A stretch of DNA of 64,000 bases from Argiope bruennichi. Taxonomy: Eukaryota. Under the pieces are notes generated by a model. That model did no database searches and was not told where the DNA came from. It saw only the letters and a list, made by a program, of their open reading frames with translations. Location of the stretch: the NCBI RefSeq assembly GCF_947563725.1, contig NC_079159.1, positions 100,113,559-100,177,558 of the forward strand, written 5' to 3'. Below are positions 8,757 to 53,490 of the stretch, piece by piece (within the stretch, counting starts at the first letter, position 1; the number at the start of each line of letters is the position of its first letter). The translations under genes and the position numbers were made by a program.

Positions 8757-11501
8757 TTATTTCCATGCAGCTCTGAGTGTTTTGCGAGCTGCTAATCTTT
8801 TTGTAGTATATGACAAGGCTACCAATCCTAATAGCACTACACTAATTAAATAATGATCAAAGTCATCTTTAAGAATGTCAAATGTTTTTGATGGAGTCAC
8901 TCGAGTATAAAATAAATCAAGTCCATGAACAAAAACTAAACAAGTTGATTCTAGGCCAGAAGGTGCAGTGACTATGTCTCGAACTCTTGAAACACTTTGA
9001 TTATAATTTATGATACCTTCAGTCAAGATAGGAAGTTCTGGAATGTAAGGAATGAGACCTTCTTCTCGATGTTCTGGCAAAGGTGTAATAGGACGTCTTG
9101 GATCCAAGAAAGTTTTAGGCAGTTCCAAAATTCCACCAGAAGGTAATGCCATTAAAAGATGCTTGTTGGTCATCCCTCTTTCTGTAACTGTATCTGCCAT
9201 TGTCACAATAGTTGATGGGAATATAAATGTTTGATGCTCTACAAGAGGTAAAGGAGGTGGTGCAAATGAAGAGAATGCTGTCGTATTACTTTGATATTTT
9301 CCTTCAAATAATTCAATTGATGAGATTTCAATTCTTCTAGACTTATCATTGTGATAACTGTAAATAATCCAGTTTTCTGAATGAACAACATGTATAGGAC
9401 TCTTGCATCTTTTGTGTGATGCCGAGTAAACAACAAGACCAGTAACAATATCAATGAGATAAAGGTTGCAGAAAGTCTTTTGAATTGAGTCATTGCCTTC
9501 AGTAAAAACAGCAGCCAAATTTGGATTTAAATATTTATACAAAACACTTCTATCACCCATGACTCTTCCTTGCGAATGCACATGCTCTGAAGGCCTCTTA
9601 GTAGCTACATTAATAATTGGCTGGGGTAATTTCATTTTCCATGCTTCAACAGCTTTCAGACTATTAGTTTGATCTGCAGTAAGGGAGTAACCTATCAAGG
9701 TACCAGATTCAGGTTCAGCTGTGAACATAAAATGTGAATTTTTATGTCTCGATATATCATGAGATTCTGGATAAACATGAACTCTTAGATCTGAATCTAA
9801 TAAAAGAATTTCTCTCAAATAATAGCTGAGTGTTCCAACAGGCATTACCTGTATTACAGTATATGGTAAAACTTTTGATTCTATAGTAATACCTGTAATA
9901 GGATCAAAAGAATATATGCGACTTTGCTGAGAATGAGCATGCCTTCCCACAGCAGTGCAAACAGGAGGATAAGGAAAATGAGCTGTTGTTCTTTGGACAA
10001 ATAATGGAAAATAAAGTTTCTCTTTCAAGCTAAAAGGAGATAAATTTTTTTCAAAATGGCTCCAAATAATTAGTCCAGACAGGTTATCAATTCCAAATGC
10101 TTTTCCTGGTTTGGTAATAACAACGATTATCTTGTGCAATCCAAATGTATCACGAGTTAGACTTTTCTTATCTATACCAACATGATCACTATCACCTTTA
10201 AAACCAACAAGGACACTTAATAAATATGACTGTAATAAATAAACTTGGGACTTTAATCTGTTCAAAAACATGGTAAGAGGATTGGCATCAGGTTGTCCAA
10301 ATTCTTGTTCAATGTTTGCATCTGTATCTGACAGTGGTAAATCTAATATTTCCGATGATACAATACTAGATAAAGCCTCTTCACGAGTCCACACCAATCT
10401 TCCCTGTTGATGAATCACAAGAACTGAATGGTCTTCAAATAACAGCAACATCTTATAGCTAACACCATGATCTTTTTTAATATATGGAAGGATAAAGAAT
10501 AGTTCCAAGTCCCCATGCTCTTCTGACAAAGAAAATGTTCCATCTAAATTTTCTAATTCTTTTTTAGATTCAATATCTAAAGCTTTTATTTTGTAAGTAT
10601 TGCTAGATTGTACCAAAGTAAACATCACTAACTTATCTTCTATAATAGTTGATGTAATTTTACTTATGCTAGGTAAAAGTTTAACAAGTTTTATCCCTGG
10701 AGGATGAATTTGTAACAGTATTCCACTATCTTCAAGCTGTAGAGCCATTAATGGTTTGTCTGATGATCCTTGATATGGCAAAGCCACTGCTTTCATTTCT
10801 TTTAGATTTTGAGTTATTTCAATACCTAGATTTCCTAATGTAACAGGTATAAAGGCACCACTATCTTTAATAGAAAGTAGCTGTAAACTCTTCTTATTGC
10901 TCTCAATGCAGACAAAATAGTTACTGGAAATAAAACTACAATTAGAAGATTTATCATACCATGGTGAAGAGATTATATTCGATGTTTTTAAGGATCCTCG
11001 TGTGTAACTATATACAGAAACTTTGGTGTGCTGCATAGGTAACATTTCAATTCTAATTATTTCTTTAGTTGAAGAGTTAACTTGAAAGTAAAGTAAAGCA
11101 GCATTATTGGGTGTATTAGGAAAAGAAGTTTCCCATAATAAAACGCCTGTATTTGCATCCCAACTTCTAATAAATTGTCCTCCACCACTAACTGTTACCA
11201 AATCACCGTTCTCAGAGACAGCATCAATTACACCCGCGTCTCCATTTTCTAAAACTTGTCGCCATATAATACTACCCGTGCGTACGCTTAAACAGGCCAA
11301 AACATTTTCCTCTGTTGCAACTATAAATTTCTGTGAACCACCTATGGCAGGATCAATATAGGCAAATTTCACTTTACCAATATATTGCTGCCTCCAATCA
11401 AATTTTCCAACTTGATCTTCATAAAGAGAACTAACAATTGCAATTAATATGAAAATAATAGTCAAGTTAATGAAGAAACTAAAATTACCAGATAATGTCA
11501 T
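8757..11501 (-). CDS. EMC1: ER membrane protein complex subunit 1 (EMC1/KIAA0090 orthologue), 914 aa, single exon
   Basis: The uninterrupted 2745-nt ORF begins with a signal peptide and then the conserved EMC1 start [20 protein letters not shown] (human [20 protein letters not shown]). Internal conserved blocks include [94 protein letters not shown] and [15 protein letters not shown]. A C-terminal TM helix precedes ...[14 protein letters not shown]. Confidence 0.92.
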   Translation of the reverse strand: [914 protein letters not shown]

Positions 11502-12801
<1,300 letters not shown>

Positions 12802-27635: not shown

Positions 27636-28708
27636 GTAAAATGATTTAAATGTACATATCTGAATATTATATATTGATATTTTGTCAAATACTTATAATT
27701 TATAATGATGGAACATGATGGCTTAATTTTAAGGACTTTTTCTTTATCATATGCATGTTTAAAGACTTTTGATTAATGTTTTACTTTTTGATTTTATTTT
27801 TGCTAAGAACAAAATATTCCTTTTGATATTGATGCAACATTTTTGTTTGTGCTTGATAATTAGTCCGAAAGTTTAATTTGGTCCAAGCAGAAATTAAATA
27901 AAAAAATGTTGAGATTGATTTATTCCCAAAAAGTGTTAGCATAAAAGAAGACTTTGAAAGAATTTTTTTCTAATATTATGATGATGCCAGCCTGGTCACA
28001 CATAACAAAACATATTTCAACAATTCAAAATAAGTGACTTTGTCTTTTTACTTTCTCAATTTGCCTATGCATTTCAGTTTATTGTTGATCTTATCTATTT
28101 CTAAGTTCCTGATTTGAATTAAAGGTGTACATAATTCCCAACTTCTCAGACTGTAAAGATATCATTTGAAATTCTTTCTCATTATCTTACCATATAACTA
28201 ATGAGATATCATCTAAGGTTGTCAATTTCTTAATGATGCCAAGATTAATAATTTTCATGAATGTTGCTTTCACTTATACGACTAAAAAAAGTAGCAAGTA
28301 ATAAATATCTCTGCAGTAAAAATGATGGAAAACCATTTGATTTTGTTCAAATAAGTGTAAATCATTTAAATTAACCTAATTATTCATTATCACTCTTTTA
28401 ATTATTTTAAATGCATCTTCATTAGAAAAATTTTTTATGTGACTCTTTTGTGTATTTTATTTTTTGCTTCTGGATCATTCATTATTCCTTCAAATTCCTT
28501 TATTATCTGTGATACAAAACAATTAACAAAGCTTACATAATGAATCATTCATTATTTATGCAAGTTTTGTTAATTGTTTTGTATCACAGATAATAAAGGA
28601 ATTTTTAAATTAGTTATATTTTTGGTATTTGAATGTTGCATCACTATAAATTTAATTTTTTGATTAAATGTAACTAATATTTTTTTAAATGACTTTTTCC
28701 TTTTTTAG

Positions 28709-28935: not shown

Positions 28936-30034
28936 GTAAGTTTTAAGATTTAGCATTTTATCTTAAATTATTTGTGTCTTGTTTTATGAAAATACTATCT
29001 ACCTTTGTGGATAATTGGTTTTTAGAAATGTTGGCCATGTTTAATTTAAATTAAATATCTTAAGAATAATTTAAAATCCAGTATTCTCTCATCAAAAGAA
29101 GAGTTTGTCTATTAAGTCAAGTCCCATGATGTCATAGTGCCATTAAAAACTTAACTGAGTAATCGGTTTCGAATTGCATAATGTTTTATTGTGATAATGT
29201 AATTTGCCTTTCTGATACCTACTGTAAACTGCTTGGATGATTAGTAAAATCTTTATTCTTGATCTCCCACCTGTGGAAGAAGATTATGCTATTAAATATT
29301 GGAGTGAAAATGATAATTCTTTTAATTTGATTGTGACTATGAAATCTATTATTGAAAATAATAATAAAAAATTGTCCAACTTTTTGTAGAATTTTGTTTA
29401 CATGATGTAATCAAAATTAAAATGGTGTAAAGATCAGTTTTGTGCTGTAATATTTTCAGAAGTTATCTCGGGGGAAAATGCTAGCTTAGTTATTAATAAA
29501 AATTTCAAAACAAAAATTTTTTTCTCATCTTTCAAAGAATATCTGTACCAAATTGGTAGTTTTAGATCTGATGGCCTTTTCTGTAGAGCATTGACTTGCA
29601 CATACATACACAAGTTCTTTCTTTATTTGCATAGGTCATTTTCAATAACCTAAGCTATTCCAATGATACTTAATATTGTCTAACATATCAAATTTAAATA
29701 TTGCATTAAAATTATAAATTGTATGCATTGTTTGAATTTGCTTATTGATTGTATTGTATCTTAAATGTAGAAATAAATTTAATTCTACTTTGTTGTATGT
29801 ATTTTCATAATCAAAGATTTACTCCTGCCTTGATTATCAAATTTATTTGCTTTTATTCTTACTGTTTTATACAGATAATTTATTGCTATTTTCTTTCATG
29901 AAACAAATCTAATGCATTTGCATTTCATCACCTATCATTGATCTTTTAATCTGTATATAGTTTGCTTTAAAGTGTATAGTATGTAATATAACAGATTTAA
30001 ATTTTAATAGTTATGATGTTATGGATGATAGTAT

Positions 30035-30157
<123 letters not shown>

Positions 30158-30346
30158 TATGTATAATGTTTTTAAATCTTCAATCTAACTGAATTGTGCT
30201 TTAAGTCATGATATATTATTCAAGTTCCTCCTTATACTTGTCTTCCAAGATTCATATAAACTTCAAATGAAACATTATTTAAAATTTAATACCATAATCA
30301 AAACTGTTTATTTAATATATAAATCATGGATTATTTTTCTTTATAG

Positions 30347-43708: not shown

Positions 43709-44933
43709 GTATGTTTGATTTTTCCATTTTCAATATATGTGTGATCTTTAATATAAATTTTATCCTTAAATCATATGAAATAACAAAGTCATATATTAAA
43801 TATTATTAAATGATAAGTTTTAAACAAATATTTCTGTGAATGCACATTATATTTTTTCATTTTGCATACATTACAGGCTTGGGATTTATAAAATTCCATT
43901 TCTTCCCAACTCATTTTTATGTAATAAATTATTATATGAGAAAGAGATGAAATAAACAAATGCTTATTAGGGCTGATTATTAGATCTAGAGCTGGAAAAA
44001 AAAAAGATTATTATTTTTTACTTTAAAAAATACAAATAAATTTTATAAACAATTTTATCCATGTGAGTTAAATTAAAAAAAATTCTAAATATCAGATTCT
44101 ATTGCATTTTAAGTGTTGCTAAAACTAATTCTGATGTGTATATAGCATTAATTAAGACAAAAGAAGTTGCTGGCTCTCCCGACTTGTCAGAAGATCCTTT
44201 CTCATCCCCTTTCAATTCATAATTTGGGGGGGGGGGGTTATATGTAAAATTTTGCATAAGATGATTATCTCTGTTGAAATTTTTTTTGAGAACATGACAA
44301 CCTATTAAAACTTCTGTTTCTAAAGTAACCTTCTTCCCTATAAACAACTGGCTACTAAAGCAATTTTTAAGAATGGCTGAAACCCTGGAAAATCTACATC
44401 AATATAGGTCTGAAATCATAATGGAAGGAAGTCCATTGTTAACAAATCTTTGAATCTACTAACTACTAACCTAATATTTTATGGGGGAGGGGACTGAAAG
44501 TTTCAGAATTATCAAATAACAGATAAAAGATGGCATAAATTATGTAAGTCTTAAATCTAATTGATTTTAAATTTTAATGTTTCTTTTTAAAATTTAACAA
44601 ACTTTCAAACTTGTTGATTATAAAACAGTTTGATCAGTTAAGAAAATATTTTAATTTTCCCCCTTTTATATAGAAATGTGTGAATTTCCATTATATAGTC
44701 TTTAAATCAGAAAATTTAATATTTCATTTGAATAACAAAGTAAATTTTGGTCTGAATATAGAAAATTGGTGTATTCAAGCGATAGTGTAAAAAAAAGGAG
44801 AAATAAAAATTTTAGAATGAACAAATTGAGTAAAAATAATTTTCTATTAGTATTTTATAATAATATTTTGTTTTATTAGAAATAAAATTTATTACTATAA
44901 GGTGTTTTTCTAATTCTAATTTATTTGCTTTAG

Positions 44934-45083
44934 GTTAAACTTCTCCAAGGTCTTGGAATTCAATCTGCATTGATCACTGATGGCAATACCCCTATTAATC
45001 TTTTCAACACTGCACAAGGCTTTCTTGGTGGTGCATTGATGCCACCTTCTAAGAGACAGAGAAAGGATAGTGATGAATCATAA
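44934..45083 (+). CDS. MVP: MVP terminal coding exon 14 (includes the stop)
   Basis: ctttag|[49 protein letters not shown] aligns with human [32 protein letters not shown]. The fourteen exons total 2619 nt, giving 872 aa plus the stop, all in frame. An aaataaa sits about 390 bp downstream. Confidence 0.82.
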
Positions 45084-48000
45084 GAAGTCCCTTTTTGAAA
45101 GCAAAGATGATTCTCATAATTTTCTTTATGCATATTGCACCCTATTTTATAACAATAAGCATGGTTGAGGCTTGTCTCATCTGCGCAAGAATTAATTTTT
45201 GATTAGAAGCTTTAAATGTTTTATAATATTCCTTGTGATTATTATGTGTTAGTGCATTTCAGTATTCACAAGGTTTTTCAAAATCAGTATTAATTGAATG
45301 AAAGAGTTTGTTCAATGTAAATGAAGGTGCAATTAATTTGAATCTTAAGTTGACTATCTTAAACAGATATTGAAAAATCTCACGTTTTGTTCAGAGTACT
45401 TTTATTTTGAAATAAGCTGCTTTTTGTTTTACTGGCTGCAATCTTAACAGCATCTGGCAAGGTATCTAAATAAAGCCACAGTGTTCTTTTTAAAAAATTA
45501 TTTATAAAAAATTTTTAGTTTTGGCTGCATCATATATATATATATAATATTCTTAATATGTGTATGAATACAATCAAAAGAAAGGAGAAACTGGATTTTC
45601 TCCTTAAAGTTCATCTTGTTAACATATATTGTCTTAAATAAGCTTAATTACGTTTGGTGCTTGAAATCATCGTTCCTAATTTTAATTATTAATTTTTTCG
45701 TATTGAAGCTTATAAAGCTTTTTCTTATCTAATCATGTAAACAGGTACATCTTAAAGTTTGTTGATTTTCATGCATTTTTTATTTTTGTTATTCCTAGAT
45801 TTTTTAAAAATAACTTTATAGTATTTGTATAGTGCCTTTTATAAATTCTTGGAAAGTGCCAGATAAAGTTATTGTCAGGAACATTGTGATGTACTTATTG
45901 ATATACAGTAGAAAGAGCTTCTTAAACATTTGCCATTTAAGATCTCCAAATATGTAAACAGTTTGGTAATTAACATTTACTTTTAAAAATGTTCCATGAA
46001 ATAAGTCCACTTATAGCTTTCTGAATTATGTATCCTTGCTTAAATAATTTGACTAAAGTTTAAAAAATATCAAAGAATTTAATATTTCATTCCAGATTAG
46101 CAATCATAGTTTAAGAAGTTCTAATTTATGTATATATACTGTTAACAATATTGTTGTGATTTTATCTTGATATTGGCTATATAAATGCTAATTAGGTATT
46201 TGAAATATTTTTATCTACTTATTAAAACTAATGAATTTATGCTGTTATTGTATACTGTTATAATTTGTTGTTTTTGCTTTGATATTTAGCTTTGTGATAT
46301 TAATTTTTAGAAGTGCCTTATATGTTTGGTTCCAAAGCATAGCACGCCACATTTGAAATTCGTGCACTAGTCAGAAAATATATTTGAATTTATTATAAAT
46401 TTGTTACAAATATATTAAAAATATTTATGGATCAAAAATTACCTATTACTTCACTTATTCTTCCTATTTTCTGAGTTTTGTTCACATTCATAACAATTTG
46501 TGCAACAATATATTGTCATTAAAAACACTGGGGAAATAGAGAAGGTTTTTTTTTTTTTTTTGTTATATTTTTAATATTTTTTTTTTCTGTGTTATAGCCC
46601 AGTTATAGCTATAGTTTTTTATTCTTAAAATTTTCAACTGAATATTGGTGAATATTGCTAAAAAATTTGTTATCTGTTAACCAATTAAATACAACCATTT
46701 ATGTGCTTTATATATACAAAAAAAAATTTCAAGATTTTTTTAGAAATGAAATTTATTTTTAGGTCATATTTTTTATTCATCTGTTACCATCTTTTATATC
46801 AAATGCTTCAGTTGATATAATATGAATTTATTGATTTTGAAAAATATATTTATTACATTTATGAATTCATTCTAGATACAATTGGTTAAGTAGTGACATA
46901 TTTTATCTAATCTTTATACAGTAATAAATTAATCTATCTTTTAATGAAATATCGAGCAAAGATTTATAAAATGTGCTTTCTAAAATGGAAATATTTTTTG
47001 CTATTCTTATAAAATTCATTGTTGCTAATTATAAATATTTGTTTAATAGTTTATTTTTGATATGAAGCTTGTTATTTTGATTAAATATAATTCATGTATA
47101 TATTAAATGTTATATATAATTAAAATTATAAATATTGTGGTGTAAAATTGCTATATAGAAGTTTTATTGAGTTTTCTATTAAAAAAACAATAGCATATAT
47201 ATTTTTATATTTTATACAGACATATATATATATATATTTTTAATGCAGTGAAATAAAATAACAAATTGTAGAGGTATTAAATTGAGCTATCCTAGTCCCT
47301 CATTTTTCCATAATGCCTGGAGTTATTTAATGTACCAAAAAATAATAATGTGCTTTATAAAATTTGGGACTTTTCATTTAGTGGAAGTAACAGGATTAAT
47401 TTACTGGCTCTTTGTTTTAACATACTGGCAGATGTGGCCAAATATTGGTTATGGAAAGGCAAAGCTATTTTCGTTTTAGATCTTTTACAATGGTTAAAAA
47501 AATAACAGATATTTTTTTTATCTACTATAGTAAAAAAATTTATGTAAACATTACATTTTATTCATTTTGCGATTGTTAAATAATGAGTCACCTGACTAGA
47601 TGAGGTTTATTTTGCCAATATTGCCATTTCCAAAATATTTAATGAAATTTTTTATATCATATTAAATATTTATATTCTTTGTGGTGGTATTCTGGCACAA
47701 AAAAGGAAAAGTAATGCTTTAACAGCAAATGAATTTAAAACAATATTATTTGTAAATTCTACTTTTAGGCACATCGTTTGTTACAAAAATAATGAATAGC
47801 TTTCATGTTTGCGCACATTTTTCGAGTAACAAAAATTTTTCATCTCTCGGCTGGCAATCGTCGGAATATCTTAGCAATACATGCGTTAATCTTGCATTTT
47901 TTAAAATTGTGATGGGGCGTGCAGCAATATCAGATGAAGAAAAAATGCAAATAAAGACATAACTGTTTTAAGAAAACTTTTATTTAATTTGTTTAAAATT

Positions 48001-50137
48001 TCATACTTTATTCTACTGAAAAAGTTAAAATTGTGTTGCAATTTTTTTTTCTAAATTTTAATTAATGCTAAAATTTATTTTTTTATTTGGAAAGAGCTGT
48101 TGAATTGAGCCGTTTTGCTCATGATATTTTCAAGACAGTTTGTCACCCATTCACCCCCTTTTTTTTTTTTTTTTTTTTTTTTTTTGTCTAAAAGGATGGA
48201 ATCAATTCCAACTCTACTAACCTGAGAACATGCATGATTCCAGGACAGCATCGAGGCTGGCAAATGAAAGCAAGCAGGGAGCAAGGCTCCCTAGTTATAT
48301 ATAATTTTATTACAACTATGTTTAATTTTAAAAAAAGAAAAAATCATCTACTGTGTATACTGTGTAAAAGAATATTTGGGGTATTACTAAGAACAATGAA
48401 TAATGCTAATAGTAATAAGAGATAATAACGAAAACATTACCACAAGAATTTCATTAAAGAAAATAAAACGAGTGTAGCACAATCAAGATACTGTATAGTT
48501 ATCTTATCTTCTCTTTCCTTGAGATCATTATTATGTCTTTAATTTATTTGATGATTAGTTCAGTTTGTGTTTATTTACAATAATCTAAAAGGATTAATCA
48601 TTATTATGCTGGCAACCACTACATGAACAACATTAGCAGACATAAAACTAAATTCTTTTTAATCAACATATCTTATGGTTATTAGTAATCCATAAATATA
48701 AGTTTACTGTATTTACCTCGCAGACAGTCAAATGTCTGAATTTTAAAACTAATCTGCAGTCTAGTAATGTATGCGGGAATATAAAATTATTTGCAAAAGG
48801 GATGCCGTAAAATATTTACTAAAGTGCATATAAAAAAAATGAGATTGATTTAAGCAATTGCGAAGGAACGGGATTATGCTATGCAAAATATTTTTGTGCA
48901 CAGCTGACCAAGATCTCTGGCTGAAGTCGCCTTTTTATGTTTTATTAGTAGTGATCATCTTTGAATATTTATAGCATTGTGATCTGGAGTGTTGAGGAGC
49001 ATGAATACATTTTTGGTCCTGATTATTTTTTTAATAAAAAGTTTAATGAGGAAGAAAGTGTAAGAACCTCCTTAAATATGAAGTGAATTTTTATCAAATA
49101 TTTATTCTTGAAAAATATGACTAATATCTCAAATTAAGATAAGTACTGTCGCTGACAATTGGTGATGAAAAGTATTTAAAAAGGATAAACATTTAAATGT
49201 ATTTGATCAGAAAAATCTTAATATTTTTATATCAAAATTTTATGTTGAAATTACTTAATTCTAGTATACCTTGAAATCCACATATATTTTAAACATTTGC
49301 ATTGTTTACAAATTTGGAATTATATTTGATCAAAAATAAAATATCAAATTATGCACTGATTTTTCCACATGTTTAATTCTAAAATAAAATAATCATATAA
49401 GTGATAAAAAAAGGAATTTTATTTCGAAATGATCCTTTTTTTACCCTTACCATTAAACACTCCATGTTTTCCTTACATTTTCCCTCTTGTCCTATGCATT
49501 AGAGCATTCTGATACTGATTAAATTATGATTACACTAGTGAGTATAGAAAACGGTTTTGCAAAATAGAGAATTACAAAAATATCCTAGTACAAAGAACAA
49601 GTGAGAATTATATTACGAAGGATTTTTTATTCTTATACTTATGGGTAGCTTGTATTTTTAAAAAATGGTAACTTCTCTGTACATAAAATAAAACATAAAT
49701 ATGTATTTTGTTCTATGTCACTTCATGTGGCTTGTTTACTTTTGGTTGAACACATGTTCTTTATTGACTAATTAAAAGTATTGAGTATAAAATGTCTGAG
49801 ATAAATCTAATCCCTTCTGACTACTGTATTGTTACAAGTAACAGTTGATTGACATATTATAAAAGTGTGATTCAGTCTATCACACTAGAAATGCTATAGA
49901 GTTTGATTTTTAATTATTAATTTTACTTTAATAAGCTCTGTGGATGATTAATTGTTTTTGAGGTGTATAAAGATGTGTGTTCAAACAGATGAATTGAGTC
50001 TGATGAAAGAGGTGAATTATTATTCGACTAAAATACTGTAGGGTTAAATCAATTTTGGTACACTTCCTTCTGGATAAGACAAGGAAGACTGCTGAAATAA
50101 ATGGAATAATTTACAAACTGGTTAGAAGAAACTGAAT

Positions 50138-50625
50138 GTAGCGAGTGGATTTTGAAGCGTTAGGAAATAAACGTTCATAGATGGCGCTAGACAACTAGCG
50201 CGAGTGTAATTAAAAGAGTGATGTCATTCGAGTGTTTGCTCTTGGAGGAGAAGGAGTTACTGAGCAGAGTAACTCGAACGAATCTGCAATAAATTTGTTA
50301 AGTTTTCTATTTGCCTATTTTTTCAAAGCACTCACGAACCAGCCACGACATTTGGCGCAGTCGACAGGATTCGAACCTGTGCGGGGAAACCCCAATGGAT
50401 TTCGAGTCCATCCAAATGTCGTGGCTGGTTCGTGAGTGCTTTGAAAAAATAGGCAAGTAGAAAACTTAACAAATTTATTGCAGATTCGTTCGAGTTACTC
50501 TGCTCAGTAACTCCTTCTCCTCCAAGAGCAAACACTCGAATGACATCACTCTTTTAATTACACTCGCGCTAGTTGTCTAGCGCCATCTATGAACGTTTAT
50601 TTCCTAACGCTTTAAAATCCAATCA
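50138..50625. repeat. Near-perfect palindrome (inverted repeat) with ~215-bp arms and a 56-bp tRNA-derived centre
   Basis: The left arm, about 50138-50355, is the reverse complement of the right arm, about 50412-50625, with only a few mismatches. For example, ggattttgaagcgttaggaaataaacgttcatagatggcgctagacaactagcgcgagtg on the left pairs with cactcgcgctagttgtctagcgccatctatgaacgtttatttcctaacgctttaaaatcc on the right. ORF-track entries 50232-50435(+) and 50332-50535(-) translate to the same peptide, which is a by-product of this symmetry. Confidence 0.85.
50356..50411 (-). pseudogene. tRNA-Ser(CGA)-derived 3' fragment covering the anticodon arm, long variable arm, T-arm and 3' acceptor strand; the 5' acceptor and D-arm are missing
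   Basis: The minus strand reads ATGGACTCGAAATCCAT (anticodon stem-loop, loop CTCGAAA, anticodon CGA), then TGGGGTTTCCCCGC (class-II long variable arm), then ACAGGTTCGAATCCTGT (T-arm with a 5-bp stem), then CGACTGCG (3' acceptor strand). This matches the metazoan tRNA-Ser(CGA) consensus ...ATGGACTCGAAATCCATTGGGGTTTCCCCGCGCAGGTTCGAATCCTGC.GACTGCG. Where the 5' half should be, an inverted copy of the flank sits instead. Confidence 0.6.
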
Positions 50626-51600
50626 CTACACTAAATTAGCATGACGTATCCTGGAGTGATTTTGATGGAAGTCTTTACATATATCTGTCAACTGTAAATA
50701 TTTTATATCAAAAGTATGATTAAATTTGTAAATTACGTTTGCTTTCAAAAATTTGGTAAGCGTTTTTTTTTTGTGTTTAATTTGCAAACAAATGAAATCG
50801 ATAATTGGAATAATTGTGTGTCAAACAGTTATTTATTTAATTTTAATTTATAATTCATTATTTATTTTTATATTTTTATTTTGTATTATTTTATAATTAA
50901 CAAGTTTAATTTATAATTAAATTATGTTTTTTTAAACAAAAGTTCATTATTGGAGAAAAAAGATAAATGGAAGGTATCTATTAAAAAAAATTTATTAAAG
51001 AATACATTCTTCCCTAGTAGTAAATGTATTGATATCAACTTTCCAACCAAGTTATGAGAATGGAAAGTGAAGATCATTCATTTCGCAAAGCTCATTCTAG
51101 TTCAATAAACGATTTTGAAAGCGTATTTGAAACTTTATCTTCTAAGATAATCCCAAAGATGGTACAATGACATAAGGTCCCGAATAGAGCTTAAACAGTC
51201 CATTCGCTCTAAATCTTTATTCTCGACAAGCTTAATTCGATAAGATTGAGCATTGAATCATCTAATAGAATGAATCCCTCATCAGTAGCATAAGCATGTA
51301 GCTGAAGCAAGGATCTCATCACTATTTCTCGAAGCAGCGAGAATTTCGTTTTGGAAATATTAAATGGGACATAAATGAGCTTGTATACAATCCCTGATTG
51401 CGATAATGTCTTCGTATCTTAGTAGCCTCTAATATTGTGCCTGTTGAATTTGTGTTACAAATTCAGGCATAATAATGGTCTTGTTTCTCGCTACCGAAAA
51501 TGATCTCCCGCAGTTGTAGCTCGTGGTCGACTCGGATCATCTTCTCAAAACTGAATTTTTTGGATTGTAACTAATGCCAGGGCCACACTGTGAGACATAT

Positions 51601-51745
51601 TAAGCATTCTAGCAGCAGTGTGGTGACGCTTTATAAGCCAGATAACAGCTACGAGACATGAGAAATTTCATTTGTCTAGTGGTCTTGTTACTCGGCTACG
51701 AACCCAAAGGTTGCGAGTTCGATCCTCGCTTATCGCCAGTAGCAA
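51601..51745 (+). repeat. tRNA-derived SINE-like unit, copy 1
   Basis: gtggtgacgctttataagccagataacagctacgagacatgagaaatttcatttgtctagtggtcttgttactcggctacgaacccaaaggttgcgagttcgatcctcgcttatcgcc contains a perfect T-arm (GCGAG-TTCGATC-CTCGC) and a D-loop-like TCTAGTGGT, but the acceptor stem does not close. Confidence 0.55.
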
Positions 51746-51994
51746 CATTGGTGACCCGATGACGAAAATACACAACCTTCATACAACTGTTGTGGCGCCC
51801 TCTACCAGAAATAAATAAAAATCAATAAGCTGATAAAAAATCGGCCAATAAATAAATAAAAAAAAATGAAGCTGATAAATAATCAGCCAATAAAAAAAAA
51901 AAAAATGGATAAGGCGCAACAGCCAATATATCACCACTAATAACAGCAAAAACAGGACAAAAAATCGTTCGTCTCACCTCCGACGAACTGAAGG

Positions 51995-52135
51995 GGGAGT
52001 AATGTGGTGACGCTTTATAAGCCAGATAACAGCTACGAGACATGAGAAATTTCTTTTGTCTAGTGGTCTTGTTACTCGGCTACGAACCCAAAGGTTGCGA
52101 GTTCGATCCTCGCCTATCGCTAGTAGCAACAGCAG
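51995..52135 (+). repeat. tRNA-derived SINE-like unit, copy 2, a tandem duplicate of 51601-51745
   Basis: About 120 bp is near-identical to copy 1 (gtggtgacgctttataagccagataacagctacgagacatgagaaatttcttttgtctagtggtcttgttactcggctacgaacccaaaggttgcgagttcgatcctcgcctatcgc). The two copies are separated by an A-rich tract carrying repeated 'aataaataaa / gctgataaa / atcagccaataaa' motifs. Confidence 0.55.
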
Positions 52136-52939
52136 CAACTTGTTCAAATCCATTTCCGTTGACCCGATCACCTGCCATCTTAATAAGAGACTTCCCGGAG
52201 ACAGTGCCAAGAATATCTTTGCAGATAAAAGCAATAAGAACTCAAAATTTTCACAAATTATAAAAAAACAATATATTCATATTTTTCTTTGGGTTACATA
52301 TAAATAATAGATTCCTTGAAAAAGGTAATAGATGCACTTCTTTCGTTATTTTAATAAATACTACACAATGTCCTTCATATAAATCATATTTGTTACCGTA
52401 ATAATACACATTTCTTTAATGGTGAAATTCAAAAAAAAAAAAAAAAAAAAAAAAAAAACTGGTTGTACCTTAACTTTTGGAGGTCAATATGTCTTATAAA
52501 AATTCAAACAGTATTCCTTCATTAAAACAATTCTAATAACGGAAACTTCTAATGGATGAATTTCACAGTTTTTGAACCCTTTTCCAAAAATGACTACTTC
52601 TGAAAAGACAATTACTCTCTAAATTTCTTGGCTGCAAAAGGAAAGTTTCTCCATAGCAGTAGATTTAGCATTCGTACTCATAGATACGAGAAATGTGATG
52701 GAATCAATCTTCCAATCTTACAACTGGTACTCTGAAAATATGCCAACTTCAGGAGGTCTCAAATCTTAAATCCACATTTGTTTTTAGTTCTCTCAATACG
52801 TTCACTGAAGTGAACAAAGCTGCAGCTTTCGTTTTTGTTATGATGCAAAATGACATTAATTCTATAATTAAATTTGTGAGCCGTATTATTTCCCATTCAG
52901 TTCAATATACCCTTACTTTTTATTTTCTCGTATACATAC

Positions 52940-53490
52940 AGTCTGTCATAAAAAAGTATTTGGACACACTACTAGGACACATATTTTACTTAAATATACA
53001 AATGAGACCAAAACAAAGAAGTAAATATTATTTTGATATATATAAATCATAATAATTCAAACAAAACTCTCATATTAATGCAATTATGGTTATAATTGAA
53101 AATAAAAGAAAGCAAGTAAAAAAAATGCTCAAAAAAGTATTGGGACACTTTTCGATAAATTAAGGAAAACAATGCAAACTTAAAAGTTAATATCTTGTTG
53201 GGCCTTCCTTGCTTATGACCTTTCCTGGTCTATTTGGTTTGGATTGGTCCAATTTTTTTTCAAAATCATCCATCGATTTTGGCTGACTTTTCTATCAAAT
53301 GTTTTCTTAAATCCTGCTTGTTAGAAATTTGATGCTCATATTGTGTTTGTTGCAAATAATTCCACAAATACTCAATGAGATTAAAGTTTGGACTTTGGAA
53401 GAATTTTAATAATACTAGTACAGTGGTAGAGGACCCATCACTTGCAAAAACCAGCAGTATGTTTCGGGAGATTTTATCGAATCTCCACAT
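52940..53490 (-). mobile_element. Second Tc1/mariner-like element end: transposase C-terminal remnant plus terminal region with direct repeats
   Basis: The minus-strand ORF 53266-53490 reads ...FQSPNFNLIEYLWNYLQQTQYEHQISNKQDLRKHLIEKSAKIDG*, matching the Tc1 C-terminal 'DLNPIE.LW...L...W..I' region. Downstream of it, the plus strand carries two copies of AAAAAGTATTGGGACAC-like motifs (about 52955 and 53133), reminiscent of the paired transposase-binding direct repeats in Tc1-family inverted repeats. Confidence 0.45.

Follow-up and report, generated by a model that had tools for sequence, protein, structure and literature searches.

Downstream of the gene for major vault protein (MVP) in the wasp spider Argiope bruennichi lies a near-perfect palindrome of 494 bp, whose two arms have termini like those of a retrotransposon long terminal repeat (LTR) and whose center is the 3' part of a tRNA-Ser(CGA) followed by an encoded CCA. 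It occupies positions 50137-50630 of the window, by which we mean the whole stretch of 64,000 nt of nuclear DNA that was analyzed (~26% GC), in AT-rich intergenic DNA ~5 kb 3' of the last MVP exon. We consider it probable, with good confidence, that the center is a reverse-transcribed primer tRNA adjoining an LTR end. For the palindrome as a whole we favor an explanation to which we give about an even chance: a defective insertion from an LTR retrotransposon primed by tRNA-Ser(CGA), formed through a snap-back copy of strong-stop DNA. A preliminary description of the same DNA had recognized the palindrome and the tRNA, and missed both the encoded CCA and the junction of LTR end, spacer, and primer-binding site (PBS), hence also the most likely origin.

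An inverted-repeat search placed the arms at 50130-50355 and 50412-50637 (226 nt each, 97% complementary), with 56 nt between them. When the two sides are compared base by base and without gaps outward from the center, there is a single mismatch in the inner 201 nt and there are six in the next 25 nt; beyond offset 226 the match is at random level. We place the true ends at 50137 and 50630 (TGTAG...CTACA), and the near-perfect palindrome that had been described at 50138-50625 is thus borne out with slightly wider limits. The arms proper, 50137-50350 and 50417-50630, differ at 4 of 214 positions, and the mirrored TTTGG (50351-50355) and CCAAA (50412-50416) extend the symmetry 5 nt past the LTR-like ends. 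Apart from a (TA)n run, this is the longest inverted repeat of the window. Folded as single-stranded DNA, it reaches -279.7 kcal/mol, compared with -54 +/- 5 in shuffled sequences (z = -46). The flanks, aligned with gaps in inverted or direct orientation, show no greater similarity than shuffles do. The GC content of the palindrome (41-44%) stands out from that of the flanks (13-30%), which is what an insertion of foreign sequence would lead one to expect. A blastn comparison of the element with the window returned no further copy of the arm or of the palindrome. The parts of the element are these:

50132-50136, no strand assigned: CTGAA, left half of a possible 5-bp target-site duplication, with its partner CTAAA at 50631-50635; suggestive only.
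50137-50350, plus strand: left arm, which is LTR-like, 214 nt long, and in sense orientation; it reads TGTAGCGAGTGG...CCAGCCACGACA and has TG...CA ends and a terminal inverted repeat.
50207-50229, plus strand: TATA-like TA-rich motif TAATTAAAA (50207-50215) and initiator-like TCATTC (50224-50229), a putative U3/R boundary by consensus resemblance, with a spacing shorter than canonical.
50254-50275, plus strand: hairpin with an 8-bp stem, GAGTTACT-GAGCAG-AGTAACTC, a putative R region, found as a self-complementary match in the blastn comparison of the element with the window.
50288-50293, plus strand: AATAAA, a putative signal for polyadenylation by which R/U5 would be defined, with a T/GT-rich stretch after it.
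50351-50352, plus strand: TT, the spacer that separates the LTR end (..ACA) from the PBS.
50353-50411, minus strand: copy of a mature tRNA-Ser(CGA), positions 27-76 including CCA, identified by Rfam and by comparison with genes; its plus strand is an over-long PBS of 59 nt, TGGCGCAGTCGACAGG...GAGTCCAT.
50356-50411, minus strand: unique center of 56 nt within the tRNA copy, identified by the Rfam tRNA family.
50412-50416, plus strand: CCAAA, mirror of TTTGG at 50351-50355 in the comparison of the arms, and the putative turn-around point.
50417-50630, minus strand: right arm, the same LTR-like unit of 214 nt as the left arm, inverted, with 4 differences from it.
50631-50635, no strand assigned: right flank CTAAA, possible target-duplication partner of CTGAA (4/5 match).

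On the minus strand the 56 nt of the center read ATGGA-CTCGAAA-TCCAT, then TGGGGTTTCCCCGC, then ACAGG-TTCGAAT-CCTGT, and finally CGACTGC-G. The preliminary description had taken this for the 3' part of a tRNA-Ser(CGA), and the identification holds: searched alone in the truncated mode of Infernal, the center matches the Rfam tRNA family RF00005 with 28.5 bits (E = 7.5e-5) over model positions 26-71 of 71, the match being 5'-truncated. Only these positions are matched, in agreement with the earlier statement that the 5' acceptor strand and the D arm are missing. At standard thresholds a tRNA search is negative, with no tRNA in the window from ARAGORN and none from Rfam at its gathering thresholds; ARAGORN does call a tRNA-Ser(cga) after a generic Ser 5' part is appended to the center. 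The center comprises positions 27-73 of tRNA-Ser(CGA), the 3' 47 nt of the tRNA. Two further Rfam matches in the region were set aside: one to MIR2119, whose 31.8 bits fall short of the gathering score of 73, is due to nothing but the hairpin shape, and one to tRNA-Sec (22 bits) is poorly aligned and borrows arm sequence. The scan of the region found no hammerhead ribozyme, which leaves a Penelope-like or retrozyme repeat without support.

The template of this copy can be judged against a reference set of 14 metagenome contigs, retrieved with a 22-nt anticodon-arm pattern, each of which carries a complete eukaryotic tRNA-Ser(CGA) gene, often within a tRNA cluster. The center is identical at 50-53 of 56 positions to the reference genes of equal 3' length (10 among the 14), and it has a distinctive pair in the T stem, a compensated A49-T65 in place of G-C. 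After the discriminator, CCA is encoded in none of the 14 reference genes, and it is present in the palindrome after the discriminator G; the template was therefore a mature tRNA. No TTTT, the terminator run of RNA polymerase III (Pol III), occurs within ~150 nt downstream on the tRNA strand. The B box (GGTTCGAATCC) is present in the copy and the A-box region (positions 8-19) is absent, and the palindrome thus lacks the combined A and B boxes that form the internal Pol III promoter of a tRNA-derived short interspersed element (SINE). It likewise departs from a functional tRNA-Ser gene, which has a complete cloverleaf and a T-run trailer and encodes no CCA.

The 5' limit of the copy is equally informative. 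It stops at A27, and the next base, a G on the tRNA strand, may be G26 or may belong to the arm. A G occupies position 26 in 14 of the 14 reference genes, all of which read ...GGTTAAGGCG directly before ATGGA. In tRNA-Ser this residue is N2,N2-dimethylguanosine (m2,2G26), which blocks primer extension by reverse transcriptases (PMC11831618). Together, the CCA, the stop beside G26, and the junction of LTR end, spacer, and PBS point to a cDNA of a mature tRNA and not to a broken gene.

LTR retroelements have a canonical layout, in which an LTR ending in CA is followed by a short spacer and by a PBS that is complementary to the 3' end of a tRNA and starts with TGG. Elements of the 17.6/297 type are also primed by tRNA-Ser. 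The left junction of the palindrome reads on the plus strand ...CCAGCCACGACA-TT-TGGCGCAGTCGACAGGATTCGAACC..., which can also be written ...CGACA-TT-TGGCGCAGTCGACAGGAT; here ACA-TT-TGGCGCAGTCGACAGGATTCGAACC brings together an LTR end and, within the usual 0-5 nt, the complement of the 3' end of tRNA-Ser(CGA) with its CCA. Complementarity to the tRNA extends over 59 nt, compared with the usual ~18. The arm itself is a TG...CA unit with a short terminal inverted repeat: the terminal 12 nt match at 8 of 12 positions, or at 9 of 12 with the right-arm version, values reached by 1.1% and 0.2% of random 12-mers from the window (0.011 and 0.002). The TATA-like, initiator-like, hairpin, and AATAAA motifs follow each other within the arm in the expected order, as far as consensus resemblance goes. 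Immediately outside the arms, CTGAA and CTAAA agree at 4 of 5 positions, as do 3.4% of random pairs of 5-mers from the window. A direct pair of LTRs that encloses an internal region and its polypurine tract is not what we find, since the units are inverted and only the tRNA copy lies between them, and the window contains no reverse transcriptase or integrase open reading frame (ORF) and no gag-pol sequence.

Searches for relatives of the element returned nothing. A 67-amino-acid ORF spans arm and center; look-ups of this ORF and of the Argiope MVP proteins for independent copies of the locus found nothing on record. A comparison of the arm ORF with 5.8 billion proteins gave no candidate, a weak negative in that spider genomic ORFs may lie outside the collection. 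The exact U5/PBS junction had 0 matches among metagenome contigs, and a 28-mer from the arm had 0 matches among viral contigs.

In Culex, elements of the Mag lineage of Ty3/gypsy have LTRs of 119-304 bp, a PBS for tRNA-Ser (or Leu), and mostly 5-bp target duplications (PMC3286476). The palindrome has an LTR-like unit of 214 bp, a tRNA-Ser PBS, and the CTGAA/CTAAA pair as a possible duplication, a combination that is thus typical of a known arthropod lineage; in the length of its LTR, in its primer, and in the 5-bp duplication, if it is one, the parent element would resemble a Mag-type Ty3/gypsy retrotransposon. The module shares with that lineage a short LTR (214 versus 119-304 nt) with TG...CA ends, a tRNA-Ser PBS that starts with TGG, and perhaps a 5-bp duplication; it differs in having neither gag-pol nor a polypurine tract, in its inverted second LTR, and in a "PBS" of 59 instead of ~18 nt (PMC3286476).

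At the inner end of both arms stands GTCGTGGCTGG, which the preliminary description had compared with the 5' part of tRNA-Ser. The resemblance is real as far as it goes: the first 8 nt, GTCGTGGC, are positions 4-11 of the reference tRNA-Ser(CGA) genes. The match is not significant by itself, being reached in 196 of 1000 shuffles, and we rejected the notion that the inner arm end is a degenerate tRNA 5' half, in that only this 8-mer aligns. The 8-mer sits 6 nt past the discriminator G73, across the CCAAAT that had been described there and that is indeed present, i.e., 3 nt past the CCA. It is followed on the genome strand by AACCA, so that base-pairing is possible between the inner arm end and the primer at positions 4-11 and 16-20. 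The motif may accordingly be U5 sequence that pairs with the 5' strand of the primer (8 bp plus AACCA/UGGUU). Extended contacts between primer and template are known in other retroelements.

The favored explanation would run as follows. During replication of the parent element, plus-strand strong-stop DNA (U3-R-U5-TT-PBS), now the left arm and the center, would have been copied from the minus strand; its synthesis, instead of halting 18 nt into the attached primer tRNA, would have continued as far as position 27 and been arrested by the dimethylated G26. Loss of the stop at 1-methyladenosine 58 (m1A58) does lead plus-strand synthesis into the tRNA, and the resulting tail no longer pairs after strand transfer (PMC8599865). 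A molecule with such a read-through tail would be unable to make the normal second strand transfer. Its stalled 3' end would then have turned around with 0-1 nt of homology, the C at 50412 being a base that could be templated by G26, and, starting at the third nucleotide of the PBS, would have copied its own or a sister strand out to the end of U3. What follows the center, CCAAA and then the inverted LTR, is exactly complementary to ...LTR-TT-TGG. The 5 nt by which the symmetry passes the LTR end (TTTGG/CCAAA) indicate that the second arm was copied across the LTR/PBS junction of a plus-sense strand. A template that starts at the first base of U3 would moreover let the copy end exactly at the LTR terminus, which explains the sharp and symmetric ends. 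The product would consist of an LTR, the tRNA copy, and an inverted LTR; each of its ends would be a TG...CA terminus on which integrase could act, and it would have been inserted 5 kb downstream of MVP. Other last steps are possible as well: the tail could have been ligated to the recessed minus strand, a hairpin could have integrated by one end, or a break could have captured the molecule. The sequence of events, the enzyme that made the turn, and the route of integration are what we infer. An autointegration product or a two-LTR-circle junction was considered as the source and rejected, as the mirror symmetry extends 5 nt beyond the LTR end and the arrangement of the LTRs would differ; the same 5 nt speak against an end-to-end joining of two LTRs.

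Several observations weigh against this explanation. Neither a second copy of the arm nor a full-length parent nor gag-pol was found in the sequences searched, and the term LTR rests on motifs. In tRNA-Ser, 3-methylcytidine (m3C) is found at position 32, N6-isopentenyladenosine (i6A) at position 37, and m1A at position 58. The copy has the canonical A58 and C32 and no obvious misincorporation, although the polymerase had to pass m1A58. To reach position 27 it also had to pass m3C32 and i6A37, if spider tRNA-Ser is modified like that of humans, which carries both m3C and i6A (PMC11831618). Canonical bases at these sites mean either that the primer was hypomodified or that the enzyme passed them without misincorporation. 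As a target duplication, CTGAA/CTAAA is imperfect, with an agreement at 4 of 5 positions that chance provides in 3.4% of cases. The differences between the arms, at LTR positions 6, 9, 18, and 174, are clustered, with three of the four falling within the outer 18 nt (P = 0.002 for a uniform distribution), a pattern that a snap-back followed by uniform decay does not predict; gene conversion between the arms that missed the edges, implying some age, or a template switch on the chromosome are both possible causes. A snap-back product is moreover at first a hairpin, and the evidence does not explain how it became an integrated duplex. Finally, the literature searched held no published example of this exact architecture.

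The clustering of the arm differences is the reason to retain an explanation that starts from the same retrotransposon material and forms the palindrome later, at the DNA level. An integrated solo LTR with an over-long PBS, or an LTR beside a tRNA retropseudogene, would have been duplicated in inverted orientation by a template switch or by fold-back repair. We regard this as unlikely, though a serious competitor. Junction microhomology of 0-1 nt is typical of template switching by any polymerase, the edge-clustered differences could mark the switch-back point or the ends of conversion tracts, and no hairpin molecule would have to integrate. However, the palindrome ends on both sides exactly at the TG...CA terminus, as predicted by the end of a cDNA template and not by a chromosomal switch, the flanks contain no further homology that could have guided a switch-back, and the unusual read-through to position 27 is still required.

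It is doubtful, though still worth weighing, that the palindrome belongs to a multicopy foldback element, similar to a miniature inverted-repeat transposable element (MITE), which would be non-autonomous, have a tRNA-derived core, and be moved by a DNA transposase or by the integrase of a retrotransposon. Such an origin had been put forward in the preliminary description, and of the origins named there it comes closest in form: at 494 bp the element is short, it ends sharply and has long terminal inverted repeats, its GC content is foreign to the locus, and mobile elements abound in its surroundings, namely SINE-like repeats related to tRNA and remnants of Tc1/mariner transposons. The evidence nonetheless favors a by-product of reverse transcription over a DNA transposon. 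The palindrome is present as a single copy in the 64 kb, its flanks (...ACTGAA and CTAAAT...) fit no DNA-transposon duplication of the TA, TTAA, 3-, 8-, or 9-bp kinds, and the sequence of LTR end, TT, and PBS at the inner ends of the arms has no reason to exist in a DNA transposon. None of the 5.8 billion proteins shares words with the arm ORF, which is a weak argument for the reason given above. A related idea, which we think improbable, is that the palindrome is one member of an unrecognized class of minimal mobile elements, in which snap-back strong-stop DNA with two identical, integrase-competent U3 ends is made repeatedly by a tRNA-Ser-primed retrotransposon, inserted by the integrase of the latter, and perhaps homogenized by conversion between the arms.

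Near-perfect palindromes are a known class of artifact, and an assembly artifact was among the earlier suggestions. We judge an error of assembly or sequencing, such as a foldback or chimeric read that entered the consensus, to be very unlikely here. The center is asymmetric and holds a biologically meaningful tRNA piece of 56 nt, the arms differ at four positions, the whole measures only 494 bp with unique non-palindromic sequence on either side, and the junctions carry a retroelement PBS layout that no library artifact would make.

The last alternative, an unusual tRNA gene, either a permuted or split gene with its 5' part downstream or a tRNA-Ser(CGA) gene that an inverted duplication had disrupted, had likewise been proposed and is largely refuted, retaining only the slightest probability: in its favor are a very good 3' part and the position of GTCGTGGC 6 nt after G73, and against it the CCA that none of the 14 genes encodes, the lack of a run of at least four T's in the ~150 nt downstream, the break exactly at G26/A27, the absence of positions 1-3 and 12-26 and with them of an acceptor stem and a D arm, the negative results of ARAGORN and of Rfam at its gathering threshold, and a 5' part that amounts to a non-significant 8-mer, better explained as U5 pairing with the 5' strand of the primer.

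Among known systems, one that is comparable is read-through plus-strand strong-stop DNA, which copies the primer past 18 nt (PMC8599865), and the copy in the palindrome reaches the next strong block, G26 (PMC11831618). The published molecules are HIV intermediates from in vitro or cell-culture work, described as dead ends unable to integrate, whereas the product seen here appears to be fixed in a germ line and is folded into a palindrome. The Culex element cqgypsy_1, of the Osvaldo lineage, contains two complete reverse-transcribed tRNAs (Lys and Glu) with CCA, head to head after the 5' LTR, with 26 nt of the LTR end directly duplicated on their flanks, and its authors infer that they were incorporated after reverse transcription (PMC3286476). 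Like the palindrome, cqgypsy_1 has a copy of mature tRNA with CCA at the LTR/PBS boundary and duplicated LTR-end sequence alongside; unlike it, the tRNAs are complete and the element is otherwise full, whereas the palindrome consists of one partial tRNA and a whole LTR in inverted duplication, and nothing else. It is the nearest published case that we found.

More remote parallels concern repeats derived from tRNA. Ohshima and Okada are said to have proposed, in the 1990s, a strong-stop-DNA model for the origin of tRNA-derived SINEs, and Schmitz et al. reportedly described tailless tRNA retropseudogenes in 2004. These share with the palindrome a CCA-ended tRNA segment joined to U5/R, or 3' fragments cut at structured or modified positions; they are, however, Pol III-transcribed and multicopy, or mediated by long interspersed elements, whereas the palindrome lacks the A-box half, has no tail, and is palindromic. 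Hairpin-RNA loci and foldback elements resemble it in that arms of ~220 bp around a short spacer give a long RNA hairpin or a DNA cruciform, and differ in that the junctions of the palindrome's arms are of the retroelement and not of the transposase type. In permuted tRNA genes of the kind generally known from Cyanidioschyzon, a 3' half likewise precedes sequence like a 5' part; the palindrome has only 8 nt of such a part, encodes CCA, and has no bulge-helix-bulge junction and no promoter or terminator context.

As to present effects, the palindrome is most likely inert and does nothing, and there is no sign that it has a functional role for the MVP locus. Formation of a hairpin or cruciform, or of a hairpin RNA if the palindrome were transcribed, is a speculative consequence of the predicted fold. 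A role as a cruciform or fragile site, which the preliminary description had raised, would be plausible on the same structural grounds.

The neighboring MVP exons lie on the plus strand at ~25.4-45.1 kb of the window, and their joined translation is 99% identical to XP_055949872.1 of A. bruennichi. In the orthologous MVP locus of Larinioides sclopetarius (L001), positions 45366-47786 align to 44853-47083 of the window with 64-76% identity, over the first ~2 kb past the MVP stop codon; this alignable stretch is presumably a conserved 3' UTR. The Larinioides locus aligns only up to ~47.1 kb of the window and contains no counterpart of the palindrome, which is uninformative at such divergence. 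Two other palindromic structures occur in MVP introns. At 28492-28604 there is a near-perfect hairpin with 54-nt arms (93% complementary) and a 5-nt loop, which could be a MITE or a hairpin-RNA candidate, and at 30032-30159 a (TA)n microsatellite of ~60 repeats, which is perfectly palindromic as well and may be a fragile site.

The intergenic DNA around the palindrome also holds other mobile-element debris. On the plus strand, 51614-51747 and 51998-52131 are two copies of a repeat, 96% identical, 384 bp apart, and separated by an A-rich low-complexity stretch. Their cores (51674-51729 and 52058-52113) are weakly tRNA-like (Rfam tRNA, 18.5 bits, E = 0.49), and the repeat is probably the head of a tRNA-derived SINE or a tandemly duplicated SINE. 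Downstream of these SINE-like copies, at 52431-52459, there is a run of ~29 A's that may be the tail of a retroposed element. An ORF fragment on the minus strand at 53266-53490 has a weak match to the C-terminal end of the DDE_3 transposase domain (E = 0.0038), by which it appears to be a decayed remnant of Tc1/mariner type, ~2.7 kb from the palindrome. A further ORF on the minus strand, at 308-613, looks like a transposase and has no Pfam match.

The window also encodes EMC1, a NAC-domain gene, and an L23a-like ORF. EMC1 (8760-11534, minus strand) is a single unbroken open frame of 925 codons, and the NAC/UBA-domain protein, which is NACA-like, is a 222-codon open frame at 12133-12798 on the plus strand. 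Unlike the heavily interrupted MVP in their neighborhood, these two are possibly intron-poor genes or retrocopies.

For annotation, a caution follows: CCA-encoding tRNA-like fragments beside TG...CA repeats are retroelement debris and not tRNA genes, and a short palindrome of this kind is not necessarily due to an error of assembly. The locus offers a concrete example of a mature tRNA, including its CCA, joined to retroelement sequence, a step long postulated for tRNA-related repeats. If the palindrome does belong to a class of minimal mobile elements, it would be a genomic record of read-through to m2,2G26 and would show a living route from strong-stop DNA and primer tRNA to new tRNA-related repeats. 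If a snap-back of strong-stop DNA is the right explanation, such DNA can pass the usual stop in the primer up to the G26 block, and dead-end molecules of this kind could still enter the genome. The palindrome would then be a germ-line fossil of failed reverse transcription, whereas published work holds read-through products to be non-integrable (PMC8599865).

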